DNA of 53,166 nucleotides, counting the filler, from an uncultured virus (IMG/VR IMGVR_UViG_2124908030_000004) (lineage: Duplodnaviria > Heunggongvirae > Uroviricota > Caudoviricetes > Thumleimavirales > Hafunaviridae). It is 9 parts of one record of this genome, joined end to end, with 100 filler letters (N's around TTAATTAATTAA, not from the genome) between each part and the next. Parts side by side here need not be neighbours in the genome. Positions count along the whole stretch, not along the records: positions 3,940 to 10,609 come from IMGVR_UViG_2124908030_000004; 8 more parts are not named here. One strand, 5' to 3'. Below are positions 3,940 to 34,072 of the stretch, one piece after another; within the stretch, counting starts at the first letter, position 1; the number at the start of each line of letters is the position of its first letter. The notes beneath the pieces are model-generated. The model did not search any database. It saw only the letters and a program-made list of their open reading frames with translations, and was not told the origin of the DNA. The translations under genes and the position numbers were made by a program.

Positions 3940-4392
3940 TACGCCGACGCAGTGCTTCATGCAGAGACAGTCCCCGATGTTGACGCCGACGAGGGCGTTG
4001 TCATCATGGACTACAAGACGGGCAAGACGGAAGACGAGAAATACCGCGACGAAGGAATCTTCCTCGAGGGCGAGTTCTACGGTTGGCTCTTTGAGGAAGA
4101 CCCGACGTTCGAACACAAGGTGGCTGCCGTGGGTGGCTACTACCCACAGAATGACGACCTTGTTATCTCTCCGTACCCCGACTACGAGCGGCGAAATCTC
4201 ATTCTTGACTCCGTGGAATCCATGCAGGAACCCCCGGAGGTAGAGAACTATGAGCTTAACGAGAATCCGCTCTGTCACTACGGCCACGGCAAGTGCTTCT
4301 TCTACGATGATTGCCCGACGACGTGGGGCATGAAAGGTGGTGCTGGTTACCACAACAAGGCAGAGCCGGACGGGAGTGTGACTCCGAAGTAA
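3940..4392 (+). CDS. Cas4-like/RecB-family PD-(D/E)XK nuclease, C-terminal part (copy 1)
   Basis: DAV...IMDYKTGK motif and C-terminal cysteine cluster; nearly identical to 18200-18654. Confidence 0.75.
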   Translation, partial: YADAVLHAETVPDVDADEGVVIMDYKTGKTEDEKYRDEGIFLEGEFYGWLFEEDPTFEHKVAAVGGYYPQNDDLVISPYPDYERRNLILDSVESMQEPPEVENYELNENPLCHYGHGKCFFYDDCPTTWGMKGGAGYHNKAEPDGSVTPK

Positions 4393-6496: not shown

Positions 6497-6584
6497 CAAA
6501 CAATCTTACTCCGCGAGAAGACGAAATTGTTGACTNNNNNNNNNNNNNNNNNNNNCAAGACAAGTTCGACATGGGGCGATAACA

Positions 6585-7550
6585 ATGGATTACTCACGAC
6601 TCACAAAAGAAGAAGCGACGGACATTCTTGTAAAGCACGACGAAGCAACGTGGACTGACCGCCTTTGGAAAGAGGTGATTGAGCCAGCCAAAGTTCTCTA
6701 CTGGTTGGATGCGTTCGGTGACCAGAGCCTCGCTATCAACTGTCAGGGCTTGCCCAAAACCCTACCCGACGACGTGGTGAAAGGCGTCAATGAGTTCGAT
6801 GTTCTGGGTGAATGGGACGGACGGCACCAAGTCCATGAGTGTCCGACTTGCAGCAGGGAACTCTACGAGTTCGGGCTTGGCAACTGCGAAATCATTGACG
6901 AGTATGGTGACCATCACCAGATGATTGGTTTCCTTTCAGATGAATCGGGCCAGATGTACGATGCACTGGGTGAACATAGGTTCATGTGTCAAGGCTGTAA
7001 GGACCACACTCGGGAGACGTTCGGACGGCACGCAAGTTACGATGGAGTAGCTATCTTCTACGGGACAACGGAGAACAAGCACTACAAATTCCGAGAGACA
7101 GCCGGCATTATCTCTCGGGATTCGTGGGGTTGCTACTCCGGTGATTGCGTTGACCTCCCGGTTCACAATGAGCAGACCAGCGACCACTACGACGTGGCTG
7201 AGATCGAACGAGCATTTGCTCAGGGTGGCCGTGAGAAGATGGAATTCATTGAGGAGGAGTTGAATTTCGTCCAAATCAAGTACGACCAACTTGACGTTCG
7301 ACGGACTGGAGTTGGCAAGGCAGAGTGGGACGTGAAAGAGATTCTTCAAGAGTGGTCCGAAGCACTCTACGATGAAGACTGTGAGAATTGCCACCCCGAC
7401 CTTGACTTCACATACATCATTGAGAACGGCAGAAAAATCTACTGTCCTGAGCAGTGGCAAGACAAACTCGAGTATGAGTTGAAGTTCCGCTTCTATCAGA
7501 AAGACGGACAGCCCGACGTGGCTCAGAGTCTGACTGACCACACGCTCTAA
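6585..7550 (+). CDS. hypothetical protein with CxxC motifs
   Basis: 321-aa acidic ORF; CPTC, CQGC, CENC. Confidence 0.7.
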   Translation: MDYSRLTKEEATDILVKHDEATWTDRLWKEVIEPAKVLYWLDAFGDQSLAINCQGLPKTLPDDVVKGVNEFDVLGEWDGRHQVHECPTCSRELYEFGLGNCEIIDEYGDHHQMIGFLSDESGQMYDALGEHRFMCQGCKDHTRETFGRHASYDGVAIFYGTTENKHYKFRETAGIISRDSWGCYSGDCVDLPVHNEQTSDHYDVAEIERAFAQGGREKMEFIEEELNFVQIKYDQLDVRRTGVGKAEWDVKEILQEWSEALYDEDCENCHPDLDFTYIIENGRKIYCPEQWQDKLEYELKFRFYQKDGQPDVAQSLTDHTL

Positions 7551-7561
7551 ACAATTAGAAA

Positions 7562-7623
7562 CGGTGAAACAGTCTTTATGACTGTCGCCGGAGAGTGGCG
7601 ACTCCGGCCTGATGAACCCGCCT
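7562..7623 (+). ncRNA. type II hammerhead ribozyme
   Basis: GGT-GAAA-CAGTC/GACTG-TC^-GCCGGAG/CTCCGGC-CTGATGA-ACC: full catalytic core, three stems, GUC cleavage triplet; intergenic. Confidence 0.9.
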
Positions 7624-7633
7624 AACCCCCTCA

Positions 7634-7888
7634 ATGCACGTTAAATCAACAGTCTATCCCGTAGCTGAAGCGCGGGAGACAGACGACGAACAGTGGTATG
7701 AATACACGGTTGCTTTGGTTTCTGACAGCAGGCGGGTAATTGACTCGTGGAACAGTCTCTACGAGACGTACAATAGCTGCCCCAAGCAGCGGTTATCAAA
7801 AGAAAAAGCGAAGCAGGCGGTTGCAGAGATTCGGAGCGACGTAGAACAGGGCGATGCAAGCACTTGGTTCGACACCAGCGACGACTAA
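7634..7888 (+). CDS. hypothetical protein
   Basis: ORF starting just after the ribozyme. Confidence 0.6.
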   Translation: MHVKSTVYPVAEARETDDEQWYEYTVALVSDSRRVIDSWNSLYETYNSCPKQRLSKEKAKQAVAEIRSDVEQGDASTWFDTSDD

Positions 7889-7893
7889 CTCAA

Positions 7894-8346
7894 ATGTCCA
7901 CTACTACCACGCAGCAGCAGGATTCCGTTGAAGCACAGCCCGCCGAAGAAGAAGTCACGTACACGTTCAAGCCGACTGAGGAAAACAAGACGCGAGGAAT
8001 CACCGTCAGCCTCGATGCAGGAACGAAAACTGAACTTGACAAGTACGTCTGCAAGTCCAACCACAACCACAAGTGGATGAGCGTCTCACAGTTCGTCAAC
8101 GACGCGCTGATTCACTACATTGACGGGTCTGGCAGCAAGGACAAGAGCGCGGAAGATATTCTCTCAGATGCCTCATGGAGTTGCGAGGCACAGAGTTGCG
8201 TCAACATTACCCCGACGCTGTTCAACGAGATCGACTCGCTTGTCTACCATCCCCACACTCCGTGGGACACGAAGCAGGAGTTCTACATCTGCGCTATTTT
8301 CGATTACGTTGAGTCGGGAATGCCCGCTGTCTACAACCGGCGATAA
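7894..8346 (+). CDS. putative tandem ribbon-helix-helix DNA-binding protein
   Basis: ITVSLD...ELDKYV...SVSQFVNDAL and a second copy VNIT...EIDSLV...TKQEFYICAI. Confidence 0.55.
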   Translation: MSTTTTQQQDSVEAQPAEEEVTYTFKPTEENKTRGITVSLDAGTKTELDKYVCKSNHNHKWMSVSQFVNDALIHYIDGSGSKDKSAEDILSDASWSCEAQSCVNITPTLFNEIDSLVYHPHTPWDTKQEFYICAIFDYVESGMPAVYNRR

Positions 8347-8348
8347 CA

Positions 8349-9134
8349 ATGTCAGGTTCACGCAAACTCCGATTCGAAGTAGTCGTACAGGTTGACGGTG
8401 ACGAGCGAGGTCCAGACCGCCGTTTCATTGAGAACGCTCTGGTTGACACGCTCAATCATGGTTACAACGACTTCGCTGTTGACGTACAACAGTCGTCTAA
8501 CTCAATGGCCGAGGACTACCCGTTCACCAGCCAAGAATACTGGCACAGTGTCATGAGTAGCGCCGAGGAGCATATTAAGAGCAGTTCACGAAAGACGGCA
8601 CGAACGGTTGTCAAGAACAACCGGCTGGTGTCTCACTACCCACGAGCAGTTATCTATCACTGTCGGAATGGGATGGCTGGCGACGGACATCAAGAGTACG
8701 TGTTCGACAGGGCTGCTTACGAGTCGAATGAGATGTTGTATCAGTTGGCGAAAGCAGCACTCTACAACGATGTAGCGGATGTTGCTGAGCGAATCCTTGA
8801 GGCAGAGAAAAATCTTGGTGAGGCTTCTGATGTTCTCTCGGACATGACTTGGAGCAAGAATGTGAAGTTCAACTTCCCGTATCAGAAGGGTGTACGTGAC
8901 CCAGTGACTCGGAACTATACTCTCAATCATCTTGGCTACGGAGAGTATGAATTCATTGACCCTGAGGGTAACTCGTTTGAAGTTATCTCGCCTTCGGTGA
9001 AGTTTGAGGCTCCCTACGATGAGCGAGAGCAGAACTTCGATTACCAGCCGAAAGCAATGACGCTGGAAACGTGGCTGAATAACTTCTGTGCCAAGCAGGA
9101 GCGAGAGCGAGAAATGGCAGCAGATGGAGCTTGA
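8349..9134 (+). CDS. hypothetical protein
   Basis: 261-aa ORF in operon context. Confidence 0.7.
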   Translation: MSGSRKLRFEVVVQVDGDERGPDRRFIENALVDTLNHGYNDFAVDVQQSSNSMAEDYPFTSQEYWHSVMSSAEEHIKSSSRKTARTVVKNNRLVSHYPRAVIYHCRNGMAGDGHQEYVFDRAAYESNEMLYQLAKAALYNDVADVAERILEAEKNLGEASDVLSDMTWSKNVKFNFPYQKGVRDPVTRNYTLNHLGYGEYEFIDPEGNSFEVISPSVKFEAPYDEREQNFDYQPKAMTLETWLNNFCAKQEREREMAADGA

Positions 9135-9690
9135 TCAGAAAACGCTAACTGGTGAATATAGTGGCCGGACGGAAGAAGCTCGATGGGGCATGGACCTTCC
9201 TACTCCACACAGTGTGGATTCGCTTGACTTGACCCGAGAGCGAAAGCAAAAACCTGTCAATATCTTTCTCTCTGAGCTTCATGAGCTTGGCGGGGTTCAC
9301 TTCTGGAAGGCTTGCTTCGGAGCGCGATACTATTCTGAGCTTGTAGCAATCTGTATTCTAAGCCGACCATCTTCCCGGCACGTTGATGATGGAGATACGA
9401 TTGAAATATCCCGGTTCTGTACCCGCCCCGACCGACCAGCAAATACTGGGTCGTGGCTGATTGCGAAAGCCCGAAACTGGGCAGTGCTTGAGGGGTACGA
9501 CGAGATGATTGCCTACGCCGGAGTTGCTGATAACAAAGGCGTCGTCTATTCTGCAACCGGATTTGACTGTCCGAATTACGACAACCCCGGAACCGGCGGT
9601 GGTTCTGGATGGACAAGCCGAGAGAATCGCACGGAAGTTCCTGAGTATGAGAAGCGTAAGTGGATTTACGATCTCACTGAGATGAGGTAG
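9124..9690 (+). CDS. XF1762/Mom-like GNAT-fold protein (putative DNA modification enzyme)
   Basis: ELVAICILSRPSSRHVDDGDTIEISRFCT...SWLIAKA...GYDEMIAY...GVVYSATGF...GW..R...KRKW family pattern. Confidence 0.7.
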   Translation: MELDQKTLTGEYSGRTEEARWGMDLPTPHSVDSLDLTRERKQKPVNIFLSELHELGGVHFWKACFGARYYSELVAICILSRPSSRHVDDGDTIEISRFCTRPDRPANTGSWLIAKARNWAVLEGYDEMIAYAGVADNKGVVYSATGFDCPNYDNPGTGGGSGWTSRENRTEVPEYEKRKWIYDLTEMR

Positions 9691-10480: not shown

Positions 10481-10709
10481 TGCCTGAAATAAATCACCGA
10501 TACGCGATTCAACTCCTCGAGGCGAAGCACGAGCGATTCGAAATAGCAGAGCGCGACCACGAGGAGCGATTGCGAGTAATCAGCGAAGCGATTGAGGCAC
10601 TCAAAGAATNNNNNNNNNNNNNNNNNNNNNNNNNNNNNNNNNNNNNNNNNNNNTTAATTAATTAANNNNNNNNNNNNNNNNNNNNNNNNNNNNNNNNNNN
10701 NNNNNNNNN

Positions 10710-12618: not shown

Positions 12619-12671
12619 ACATCACAAAGATGGGCTCTACCAGCATAATTCTTTGCCAAAGAAGAATCAAG

Positions 12672-12710
12672 TCGGTATCTTTAAGTCCTTGGACGTTGTT
12701 TAATAGAGTA
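12672..12710 (+). promoter_or_regulatory. conserved viral promoter, class A
   Basis: TCGGTATC-TTTAAG-TCCTTGGACGTTGTTTAATAGAGTA; TATA-like box; repeated at 13263 and 21572. Confidence 0.8.
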
Positions 12711-12983
12711 AGGAGGGCGCGGCGTCGGTGGGCCGCCGTCCTTCAGGTGATTTTGCGATGGGCCGCCGCTCGTATGGGAGTCACAACCCACGGCGGCTTT
12801 GCGGTTGTAGTAGAGTGAGTCAAATTACCAATTAGTTCCTACCATGAGTAACAAACACAACGCCCACTTCGAGAAGCAGCAGCAAGGACCGACACCAACC
12901 CACCCCTCGATTGGAAACAACGACGACGACGACCCAAGCCCGCCGGGTATCGGCAGGGTCACGACAAATAACGAGGCAAGTGC

Positions 12984-13244
12984 ATGACTGTAACCATCTA
13001 CGAGGACGATCAGCGAACGTTCGAAACGCACGACCGAGAGGGATACAAGTACATGGACAAAGAGCGTGGCAGTATCTTTTATTTTAACGCTATTAATATT
13101 ACTGACGACGGGTACCTTGAGTTCCGTCGCCTCCGTTCATCTTCAGGTTTTCTTGCTGGTGTAATTCACAAACTGCATGAGCTTCCCCGTTCCCTCCTCA
13201 ATGAATTTGAGCGCATTGAGCGAGGTGATGACGGTAGTAACTGA
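12984..13244 (+). CDS. hypothetical protein
   Basis: ORF downstream of a class A promoter. Confidence 0.5.
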   Translation: MTVTIYEDDQRTFETHDREGYKYMDKERGSIFYFNAINITDDGYLEFRRLRSSSGFLAGVIHKLHELPRSLLNEFERIERGDDGSN

Positions 13245-13262
13245 GTCGGCCAAGGAATTAAA

Positions 13263-13300
13263 TCGGTATCATTAAGTCCTTGGCCGTTGTGTTATAGAGT
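13263..13300 (+). promoter_or_regulatory. conserved viral promoter, class A variant
   Basis: TCGGTATC-ATTAAG-TCCTTGGCCGTTGTGTTATAGAGT. Confidence 0.75.
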
Positions 13301-13335
13301 GGGGGCACACACTCCCTCGCTCCAATTTTCCTTTT

Positions 13336-21296: not shown

Positions 21297-21562
21297 ACAT
21301 AGAAGACCTAATCTTTCCGAACCACACGGACGTACAGAGCATCAATGAAGTAACCCTCTCCGATGAAACCCCGCCGGGAGCCACGCAGCCGGTGGTTGGT
21401 GACACTTGGAATGAGAATTACGAGGGCGACAAGTACGGCTGTCCGGAGTGTGACTCTGAGTTTCAGGTATTCTACTCTGCGAAATACTGCCCGGTGTGCA
21501 AACACGAGGTCAAGGGCCGGACAACCAACACCGGACAGTCGGGATTCGGTCAGTTCATGTAA
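21293..21562 (+). CDS. zinc-finger protein
   Basis: CPEC and CPVC motifs. Confidence 0.65.
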   Translation: MNIEDLIFPNHTDVQSINEVTLSDETPPGATQPVVGDTWNENYEGDKYGCPECDSEFQVFYSAKYCPVCKHEVKGRTTNTGQSGFGQFM

Positions 21563-21571
21563 GACTTAATC

Positions 21572-21610
21572 CGGTATCTTTAAGTCCTTGGACGTTGTTT
21601 AATAGAGTAG
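21572..21610 (+). promoter_or_regulatory. conserved viral promoter, class A
   Basis: CGGTATC-TTTAAG-TCCTTGGACGTTGTTTAATAGAGTAG. Confidence 0.8.
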
Positions 21611-21641
21611 GGAGGTTGCGGGGAGATTCTTAGGAGACACC

Positions 21642-22044: not shown

Positions 22045-22117
22045 GCTGTGGTAGCTCAGTTCGTAGAGCATCTGGCTGTTACCCAGAAAGTCGCAGGTGC
22101 AAGTCCTGCCCACGGCG
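22045..22117 (+). tRNA. tRNA-Asn(GTT)
   Basis: Cloverleaf: GCTGTGG/CCACGGC; GCTC/GAGC; TCTGG-CTGTTAC-CCAGA; GCAGG-TGCAAGT-CCTGC. Confidence 0.9.
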
Positions 22118-22237: not shown

Positions 22238-22309
22238 ACGAAGGTAGGGTAGTGGCCTAACCTTGCTCCTGTGATGGAGTAGCCTCGGGTTCAAATCCCG
22301 GCCTTCGTA
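22238..22309 (+). tRNA. tRNA-like gene with non-canonical 6-nt anticodon loop
   Basis: ACGAAGG/CCTTCGT; GGGT/ACCT; GCTCC-TGTGAT-GGAGT; TCGGG-TTCAAAT-CCCGG. Confidence 0.75.
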
Positions 22310-29284: not shown

Positions 29285-29388
29285 CCGAATAGGCTGCAAA
29301 AAGACCCCACCAACACCTCTCGGTGTGATGGGGTCAATGTATAATTACTCACTGTTACCGCTGTCCGCCGTCCGTCCGCATCGCCTCC

Positions 29389-29433
29389 CTACTCTATTAC
29401 ACAACGTGTAATAACTTAAAGATACCGATATAA
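29389..29433 (-). promoter_or_regulatory. conserved viral promoter, class B (palindromic)
   Basis: Same motif as 11484 and 33662; upstream of nrdJ. Confidence 0.8.
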
Positions 29434-29566
29434 CTCTTAGAGAGTTACGTCAGACTTTTCGCTCGCTGCTTCGCAATCTTCTTAATCGTTTCACCGATCA
29501 ACGCGCCGGTTGTAAGTCCGAGAGCAAACGTCGTCTCGGGTGGCGCTGCGTAGATAATTTCCCACA

Positions 29567-33542: not shown

Positions 33543-33661
33543 AGTAATCAAATTAGAGAGATAAAATACATTGAGGAGGTTTAGAACGTTTCCAAATCCC
33601 TCAATGAAGATTATCTCAGTATTAAAAAGACCGCAAAGGGTTGTTCGTTCTCAACTCCTCC

Positions 33662-33706
33662 CTACTCTATTACACAACGTGTAATAACTTAAAGATACCG
33701 ATTTAA
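33662..33706 (-). promoter_or_regulatory. conserved viral promoter, class B (palindromic)
   Basis: Same motif as 11484 and 29389. Confidence 0.8.
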
Positions 33707-33709
33707 CTC

Positions 33710-34072
33710 TTAGGCGTCCTCGGTATTCCGGTCCATCGCCACCCAATCGTAGGCAGTTTCGGTTTCAGACTCAGACTGAACCTCGTAGGAGTCGGAAGTC
33801 ACCATCACGTCTTCATACGTCTCTACTTTGCCAGAGAGTTCGTGTGTGATGCTCACCGACACGGGGTTGGGGATACCATCATCATCGAACAGCAGCTCGT
33901 CAAGCCGCATCTCCTGCCCATCAGGGCCGGACACGCGCTCGCCCATGAACTGAATGGACCCGGAGAACGAGATCATCGTTACGGAATAGCCGCTCGCCTT
34001 GAGCGACCCCTCGCGGACTTCCGAGATTTCGACCTCCTTCGTGGTGTCAAGCTGAGAAACAGGAACGCGCAT
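33710..34072 (-). CDS. tail tube protein (N-terminus uncertain)
   Basis: Small beta-rich protein upstream of the chaperone; adjacent to a gap. Confidence 0.65.
   Translation of the reverse strand: MRVPVSQLDTTKEVEISEVREGSLKASGYSVTMISFSGSIQFMGERVSGPDGQEMRLDELLFDDDGIPNPVSVSITHELSGKVETYEDVMVTSDSYEVQSESETETAYDWVAMDRNTEDA

Follow-up and report, generated by a model that had tools for sequence, protein, structure and literature searches.

A rather divergent type II hammerhead ribozyme predicted in an intergenic gap of a Hafunaviridae-like halovirus

A type II hammerhead ribozyme of 65 bases was found in an intergenic gap of an uncultured halovirus, at positions 7562–7626 on the plus strand of the window (the whole stretch of DNA that was analysed, 53,166 nucleotides with filler included). 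It is a new and rather divergent example of a class of ribozyme that was already on record for this halovirus family. We estimate with a probability of roughly 0.78 that it is a functional ribozyme with a consensus core, lying in sense orientation inside a long early or replication transcription unit of a Hafunaviridae-like virus. Judged from the sequence, its most likely role would be to cleave a presumed long early transcript between C7586 and G7587, with a predicted effect on the expression of the genes on either side.

Architecture, fold and significance against chance

The Rfam model Hammerhead_II (RF02276) matched the sequence with 42.3 bits, above its curated gathering cut-off of 37, and aligned over its full length (model positions 1–66 of 66). 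The E-value of 2.4e-5 refers to the whole window searched against all 4227 Rfam families. The initial annotation had described a complete type II hammerhead at 7562–7623 and had proposed a comparison with the Rfam hammerhead models; the match confirms that description, and each element it named was found in its place (Table 1).

Table 1. Elements of the ribozyme and flanking genes, in window coordinates.
Feature	Position	Strand	Basis
Primase gene, 413 aa	5255–6496	+	53 phage records match, best 67.3% identity, annotated DNA primase
Upstream gene, 321 aa	6585–7550	+	Sole homologue HRTV-25 gp88, 26% identity
Whole type II hammerhead	7562–7626	+	Extent of RF02276 match; 63.6 bits with in-house model R1, whose training alignment includes the window itself
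Stem II 5' strand, GGU (11.3–11.1)	7563–7565	+	Sequence; partner ACC 7616–7618
Core G12 A13 A14	7566–7568	+	Sequence and RF02276 alignment; GAA/A spans 7566–7569
Stem III hairpin, ACAGUC 7569–7574 / loop UUUAU / GACUGU 7580–7585	7569–7585	+	Sequence, MFE fold, compensatory changes in orthologues
C17, predicted scissile bond C7586/G7587	7586	+	Position in Rfam alignment; triplet GUC 7584–7586
Stem I hairpin, GCCGGAG 7587–7593 / 8-nt loop AGUGGCGA / CUCCGGC 7602–7608	7587–7608	+	Sequence and MFE fold
Core C3 U4 G5 A6 U7 G8 A9 (CUGAUGA)	7609–7615	+	Sequence and RF02276 alignment
Stem II 3' strand, ACC (10.1–10.3)	7616–7618	+	Sequence
3' tail CGCC, predicted 4-bp pseudoknot with loop I GGCG 7597–7600	7619–7622	+	Sequence complementarity and covariation
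First downstream gene, 84 aa	7634–7888	+	Sole homologue HRTV-25 gp93, 44% identity
Second downstream gene, 150 aa, from ATG 7894	7894–8346	+	HRTV-8 gp107 homologue, 45% over 132 aa, E 2e-41
Third downstream gene, 261 aa	8349–9134	+	HRTV-8 gp106 homologue, 37% over 167 aa; phrog_21760, function unknown

Stem III comprises 6 bp and stem I 7 bp, with loops of 5 and 8 nt respectively, and stem II 3 bp. Loops close stems I and III, and stem II is open, formed by the two ends of the molecule, which is the arrangement of the type II permutation. All invariant positions of the core are present, namely C3 U4 G5 A6 N7 G8 A9, G12 A13 A14, the pair A15.1–U16.1 (A7569–U7585), which closes stem III, and H17. 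These positions carry what we take to be the standard hammerhead numbering, which agrees with the Rfam alignment. The pseudoknot predicted between loop I and the 3' tail consists of four G–C pairs; such a pseudoknot is described as a majority, non-obligatory feature of type II hammerheads (Perreault et al., 2011; PMC3088659). In an alternative register offered by Rfam, A7616 counts as inserted and only the two pairs CC/GG remain of stem II. Both registers would be compatible with an active ribozyme by the account of PMC3088659, which reports that active natural hammerheads often have a 2-bp stem II and that even a U–U at 10.1–11.1 supports activity.

The bare core pattern GAAAC..GTC..CTGATGA occurs once in the window against an expected 0.04, and was matched in 4 of 100 shuffles. 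The MFE fold has an energy of -24.7 kcal/mol (z = -3.12), a value reached by none of 200 shuffled sequences, and recovers stems I and III. Computed without the pseudoknot, it pairs GGUG 7563–7566 with CGCC 7619–7622; because this pairing takes in G12, it would sequester that base and compete with the pseudoknot. The CGCC tail thus has two possible partners, loop I in the active form or the 5' end in an inactive form, and the same ambiguity seems inherent to the type II consensus, with GGC at the 5' end and GCC in the tail. No further hammerhead was found in the window, either at E ≤ 1 in a permissive Rfam scan or in an unfiltered scan with the in-house model, where the next best hit scored 12 bits.

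Genomic context and counterparts in related viruses

The identity of its primase places the window in a tailed halovirus related to Hafunaviridae, the best relatives including HSTV-4 and HRTV-8 of that family at ~67% identity. The window also encodes PolB, ThyX, dCTP deaminase, an integrase, ribonucleotide reductase, baseplate J, a capsid protein and terminase. Two tRNA genes lie on the plus strand between PolB and ThyX, at 22045–22117 (66.6 bits) and 22238–22309 (42.6 bits); the anticodon stem of the second aligns less well. Sizeable ORFs that have homologues or domains lie on the plus strand from 1 to ~24.6 kb and on the minus strand beyond, and the plus-strand block around the ribozyme puts the motif in sense orientation within the early or replication genes. 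The upstream ORF stops with TAA at 7548–7550, and the next could start at ATG 7634 at the earliest. The ribozyme fills this gap, as the initial annotation had it, and a cut after C7586 would leave a leader of 47 nt (7587–7633).

HRTV-25 (genus Laminvirus) was the only source of homologues for the 321-aa and 84-aa genes. Neither the 321-aa nor the 150-aa protein matched a Pfam or PHROG family, and the AlphaFold model of the 150-aa protein, built from 3 sequences, has a mean pLDDT of 39.6. By eye only, this protein contains two repeats resembling ribbon-helix-helix segments (ITVSLD..SVSQFVNDALIHYI and ITPTLF..KQEFYICAIFDYV). Further downstream, a 200-aa ORF (9088–9690, plus strand) weakly resembles the Mom protein family PF25680, scoring 19.6 bits where the threshold is 27.1. 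An antisense ORF at 6936–7634, for which no family was found, was taken as spurious. The window contains 23 stretches of N (e.g. 6536–6555 and 10610–10709), which break several ORFs, and one of which falls in the intergenic gap that separates the primase from the 321-aa gene; the ribozyme is untouched. DNA of the region 6600–8600 is partly present in four DNA runs from one metagenome study of a hypersaline lake, and the sequencing-run search listed no RNA run containing it. Among the contigs from those runs, compared over 7000–8400, a single one spans the ribozyme and is identical, so no microdiversity could be read from them.

The initial annotation had implied that hammerheads are a rarity in archaeal viruses, and this does not hold. 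Type II hammerheads with a pseudoknot between loop I and the tail were described by Perreault et al. (2011; PMC3088659), including those of the haloviruses HF1 and HF2 (HHphage), which were published in that paper as lying 13 nt upstream of the helicase start codon and having an atypical core insertion. Among the non-coding features conserved in the HF1 group, Dyall-Smith et al. (2020; PMC7230728) list the hammerhead, and the GenBank record of Serpecor1 (MN901521.1) annotates it as an RF02276 ncRNA. A search of 12 records of relatives with RF02276 gave 11 positives; one record duplicates Serpecor1 (equal length and hit coordinates), which leaves 10 of 11 distinct records above the cut-off, all complete relatives among them. 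The only negative is a 7.7-kb fragment. The Hafunaviridae genomes searched here carry one to three hammerheads each, most with variant and few with consensus cores, and their several distinct sites extend beyond the published one at the helicase.

Some of these further sites can be named. Downstream of the helicase is a site where cores like CUUUGAUGA or CUAUGAUGA are seen (relatives L109, L017, L107 and L014 were searched). In HRTV-25, a hammerhead with a consensus core and a different loop I is located near the right end, at 60522–60595. CDS annotation in GenBank can also run across a hammerhead: in HJTV-1 (MZ334509.1), a 25-aa CDS annotated as 'gp98' overlies the helicase-proximal hammerhead at 67568–67645 (4170–4247 of locus L013).

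HHphage and the window ribozyme share the type II architecture with its pseudoknot between loop I and the tail, the virus family, the sense orientation in an early operon and a position a few nucleotides before a start codon. They occupy different sites, HHphage being directly upstream of the Rad3-like helicase, and they differ in their cores, which in HHphage are atypical and contain inserted bases (e.g. CUGUUGACGA), whereas the window has the consensus CUGAUGA. In the relatives, HHphage scores 39–45 bits with RF02276. The type II hammerheads of bacterial phages and prophages (RF02276) have the same consensus as the window, and 28 distinct pattern matches in viral contigs and phage loci align with it; they are described as intergenic, with their flanking genes in polycistronic RNAs (PMC3088659). 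The window ribozyme is set apart from this group, as far as hosts are known, by the archaeal domain of its host and by the A–U pair at 10.1–11.1.

The closest counterpart by position is found in the genus Haloferacalesvirus. HRTV-8 carries a hammerhead with a consensus core (51.2 bits, 65505–65572) 30 nt before gp107, which is followed by gp106; we refer to this site as HH-B, a label coined in this analysis. The predicted window ribozyme corresponds by position to HH-B: the 150-aa and 261-aa genes, homologous to gp107 and gp106, identify the site, the ribozyme lying upstream of both and on the same strand with the 84-aa gene interposed. A blastn search with the HRTV-8 copy as query found HH-B in 13 Haloferacalesvirus phage records, representing 11 viruses (HRTV-8, -14, -17, -10, -18, -19, -20, -22, -23, -26 and Hardygib1) and two RefSeq duplicates. 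In all 13, GenBank leaves the site unannotated or covers it with the start of an over-extended CDS. The latter is seen in HRTV-10, -18, -19, -20, -22, -23 and -26, where the gp107-like CDS was begun 45 nt too early, within HH-B (MZ334496.1, MZ334494.1, MZ334497.1 and relatives; loci L112 and L113). The literature searched, with subscription journals outside it, contained no paper on the HH-B site, and none on the function of halovirus hammerheads beyond PMC3088659 and PMC7230728; one supplementary text of PMC7230728 is silent on the subject.

HH-B and the window ribozyme are alike in their consensus core, in GUGG within loop I, in a GCC tail and in the gp107 and gp106 homologues downstream. 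Stem I and part of stem III are wholly different in sequence, with compensated changes. The window has U–A at 11.1–10.1 and no extra U after A9, whereas HH-B has C–G and the extra U; the pseudoknot comprises 4 bp in the window versus up to 6 in HH-B; and only the window has an additional gene, of 84 aa, separating the ribozyme from the gp107 homologue. The module itself has moved, following the primase and the 321-aa gene in the window and preceding the primase by ~15 kb in the HH-B genomes. In HSTV-4 and HRTV-8, a stretch of 5 kb to each side of the primase was found to contain no hammerhead, so the position of the window site with respect to the primase is not conserved.

It is possible, though on balance doubtful, that the hammerhead makes up a portable unit with the 150-aa gene, in which the ribozyme travels with the gene and would supply it with a fixed, self-made 5' end, insulating its expression from upstream. 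Three observations point in this direction. A tblastn search with the 150-aa protein found homologues in 13 records, whose accessions are identical to those of the 13 carrying HH-B, as against 41 records with a homologue of gp106. HJTV-1 lacks both the ribozyme and gp107 at this place, and the two genes that flank them elsewhere lie directly next to each other. In the much more distant virus of the window, a ribozyme again lies upstream of a gp107 homologue, despite the displacement of the module. The 13 records come from closely related viruses, and one insertion or deletion may account for all of them, so together with the window they amount to roughly two independent observations, and in the window the 84-aa gene stands between the two elements. 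The tree of gp106 homologues has none of its six inner branches supported. The exact co-occurrence of HH-B and the gp107-like gene, in about two independent lineages, is the one finding here that goes beyond routine annotation; the window copy as such adds one example and leaves the knowledge of hammerheads unchanged. A ribozyme and one small gene kept together across deep divergence and rearrangement would offer a testable handle on the purpose of hammerheads in phages and viruses.

Covariation and the conserved pair in stem II

Two alignments were used to evaluate the helices. The first (A3) holds seven HH-B orthologues, six of them distinct, and was fitted to the structure of the in-house model, so that its pair counts lean toward that structure: 94.9% of its cells are paired, compared with 80.4% after shuffling and 32–52% with partner columns slid, and 11 of 23 pairs, including 7 of the 8 in stem I, show changes on both sides. 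Stem I occurs in the HH-B set as three wholly different sequences, each complementary to itself. The second alignment came from a strict pattern, in which stem I and the inner part of stem III were set to N; it matched 38 stretches in viral contigs, of which 28 were distinct, giving 29 sequences with the window. Aligned with MAFFT, these pair in 95.0% of cells versus 72.9% after shuffling, with both-sided changes in 14 of 21 pairs; the invariant pairs are uninformative, because the search pattern fixed them. The sequences within each set are related to one another. Both sets exceed their shuffled or slid controls, and the compensatory changes support the helices.

These data bear on two further points of the initial annotation. 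It had proposed covariation across related haloviruses as a check, and the stems of those relatives indeed differ and yet stay paired. It had also suggested that GGCG in loop I can pair with CGCC in the tail, and the two are complementary; over the 29 sequences, 87.9% of cells in the columns of this pseudoknot show pairing, and one of the pairs covaries (UA/AU/GC). The fourth pseudoknot pair is G–C in the window alone among the 29.

The most unusual pair of the window ribozyme is 11.1–10.1. It is U–A in the window alone and C–G in the other 28 of the 29 aligned type II hammerheads. PMC3088659 ranks it second only to 15.1–16.1 in conservation, which makes it one of the two most conserved pairs. 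This A–U at 10.1–11.1, combined with the shortness of the 3-bp stem II, could slow the ribozyme. Could the sequence then be a hammerhead by descent that has become catalytically weak or dead, a decaying copy that serves at most as a pair of intergenic hairpins? Besides the singular A10.1–U11.1 and the short stem II, such decay would accord with the competing GGUG/CGCC pairing in the MFE fold and with the absence of HH-B from most Haloferacalesvirus genomes. This absence indicates that loss is tolerated, and HH-B is dispensable in most relatives as judged from these genomes. However, the invariant core bases are intact, the three stems are perfect and the pseudoknot is made of four G–C pairs. 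The change at 10.1–11.1 affects both sides (C–G to U–A) and keeps the pair, which is the expectation under functional selection and not under decay; and the short stems and the U–U mismatch reported as tolerated in active natural hammerheads (PMC3088659) make the window's stem II less suspect. Because core and stems are intact and the change in stem II is compensated, we consider a dead relic unlikely. Its compensated natural A–U pair would make the window ribozyme well suited, as a natural variant, to kinetic work at high salt.

A closer relative that might show conservation over a short range was not found by protein searches of viral, genome and metagenome contigs or by a DNA pattern in viral and metagenome sequence. 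No homologues of the 321-aa and 261-aa proteins were found in the viral contigs, and none of the 261-aa protein in the metagenome contigs. The primase gave only relatives of 64–67% identity in the viral contigs and only an unrelated 40% fragment in the genome contigs. A pattern in the U11.1/A10.1 form matched 1 viral and 36 metagenome stretches, none of which has the stems and all of which score at most 19.4 bits with the in-house model; these were rejected as chance matches.

Predicted role in the early transcript

The preferred reading, which follows the initial annotation, is that of an active ribozyme that divides a polycistronic early message. Transcripts in HF2 are long and polycistronic, up to ~35 kb (PMC8707807). 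As such an RNA is synthesised, stems III and I would form hairpins and the 3-bp stem II would close; the pseudoknot between loop I and the tail would dock stems I and II side by side, and the 2'-OH of C7586 would attack the neighbouring phosphate. The upstream message, with the primase and the 321-aa gene, would then end in the stem III hairpin and a 2',3'-cyclic phosphate. The downstream message, from the 84-, 150- and 261-aa genes onward, would begin with a 5'-OH and the 7-bp, GC-rich stem I hairpin within its 47-nt leader. Terminal hairpins and the unusual chemistry of the ends may alter decay and uncouple the two halves of the transcript, so that stability and translation of the downstream module would become independent of the upstream genes.

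Published work on related ribozymes is consistent with this scheme. In HF2, the 5' end of a transcript was mapped to within 3 nt of the hammerhead cleavage site, and prophage type II hammerheads cut native polycistronic RNAs of ~2 kb in vitro (PMC3088659). Viruses of the HF1 group encode an RtcB ligase, an enzyme that joins just those ends that hammerheads produce. A tblastn search with Serpecor1 RtcB against the 53-kb window gave nothing meaningful (best E 6.3); an RtcB gene of this virus may lie beyond the 53 kb. A scan for promoters and terminators of the bacterial type was blank on the plus strand near the ribozyme, archaeal promoters being outside the scope of the model.

An active ribozyme could also have a main role other than cutting the operon, as a conditional switch tuned by Mg2+ or K+, or as a 5' structure that aids translation of the gene starting 11 nt past the pseudoknot. 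We rate the chances of this as slim. Control by salt or Mg2+ has been proposed for halovirus variants (PMC3088659), and start codons lie close to halovirus hammerheads, at 7–11 nt here, 12 nt in Serpecor1 and 30 nt in HRTV-8; no Shine-Dalgarno-like sequence was found between the ribozyme and ATG 7634, and the title of a 2026 paper (PMC13725137) speaks of RNA viruses that use self-cleaving ribozymes for translation initiation. However, the core of the window ribozyme is the consensus, unlike the insertion-bearing core that makes HHmeta require high Mg2+ (PMC3088659). The sequence gives no sign of an element sensing a ligand or an ion, and the idea of a role in translation found no archaeal support in the literature covered.

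That the sequence is no ribozyme at all, being either a fortuitous match or else a promoter or an intergenic repeat like the promoter-bearing ones of HF2, is very improbable: 7547–7560 agrees with 12 of 14 bases of a promoter-associated motif of HF2 and 7573–7582 with 8 of 10 bases of its 'beta' motif, but such matches occur at chance level (3 found versus 3.23 expected; 47 versus 44.3), the true copies of the repeat (12678, 13269, 21577, 29413 and 33686) align with one another and not with the ribozyme region, and the Rfam score above the curated cut-off, together with the covariation, excludes a chance match. Assignment of the ribozyme region to the HF2 class I intergenic repeats, with their alpha, beta and gamma motifs, was rejected on the same chance-level matches and the lack of alignment with the five copies.

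The repeat itself is ~55 nt long and occurs in five intergenic copies in the window, at 12640–12725, 13231–13316 and 21539–21624 on the plus strand and at 29375–29460 and 33648–33733 on the minus strand. Its consensus is ..TAAGA.TTAAATCGGTATCTTTAAGTCCTTGGACGTTGTGTAATAGAGTAGGGAG, and each copy contains an exact or near-exact 'beta' motif of HF2 class I (TCTTTAAGTC). Since promoters have been demonstrated in the class I intergenic repeats of HF2 (PMC8707807), the five copies probably mark promoters of the window's virus.
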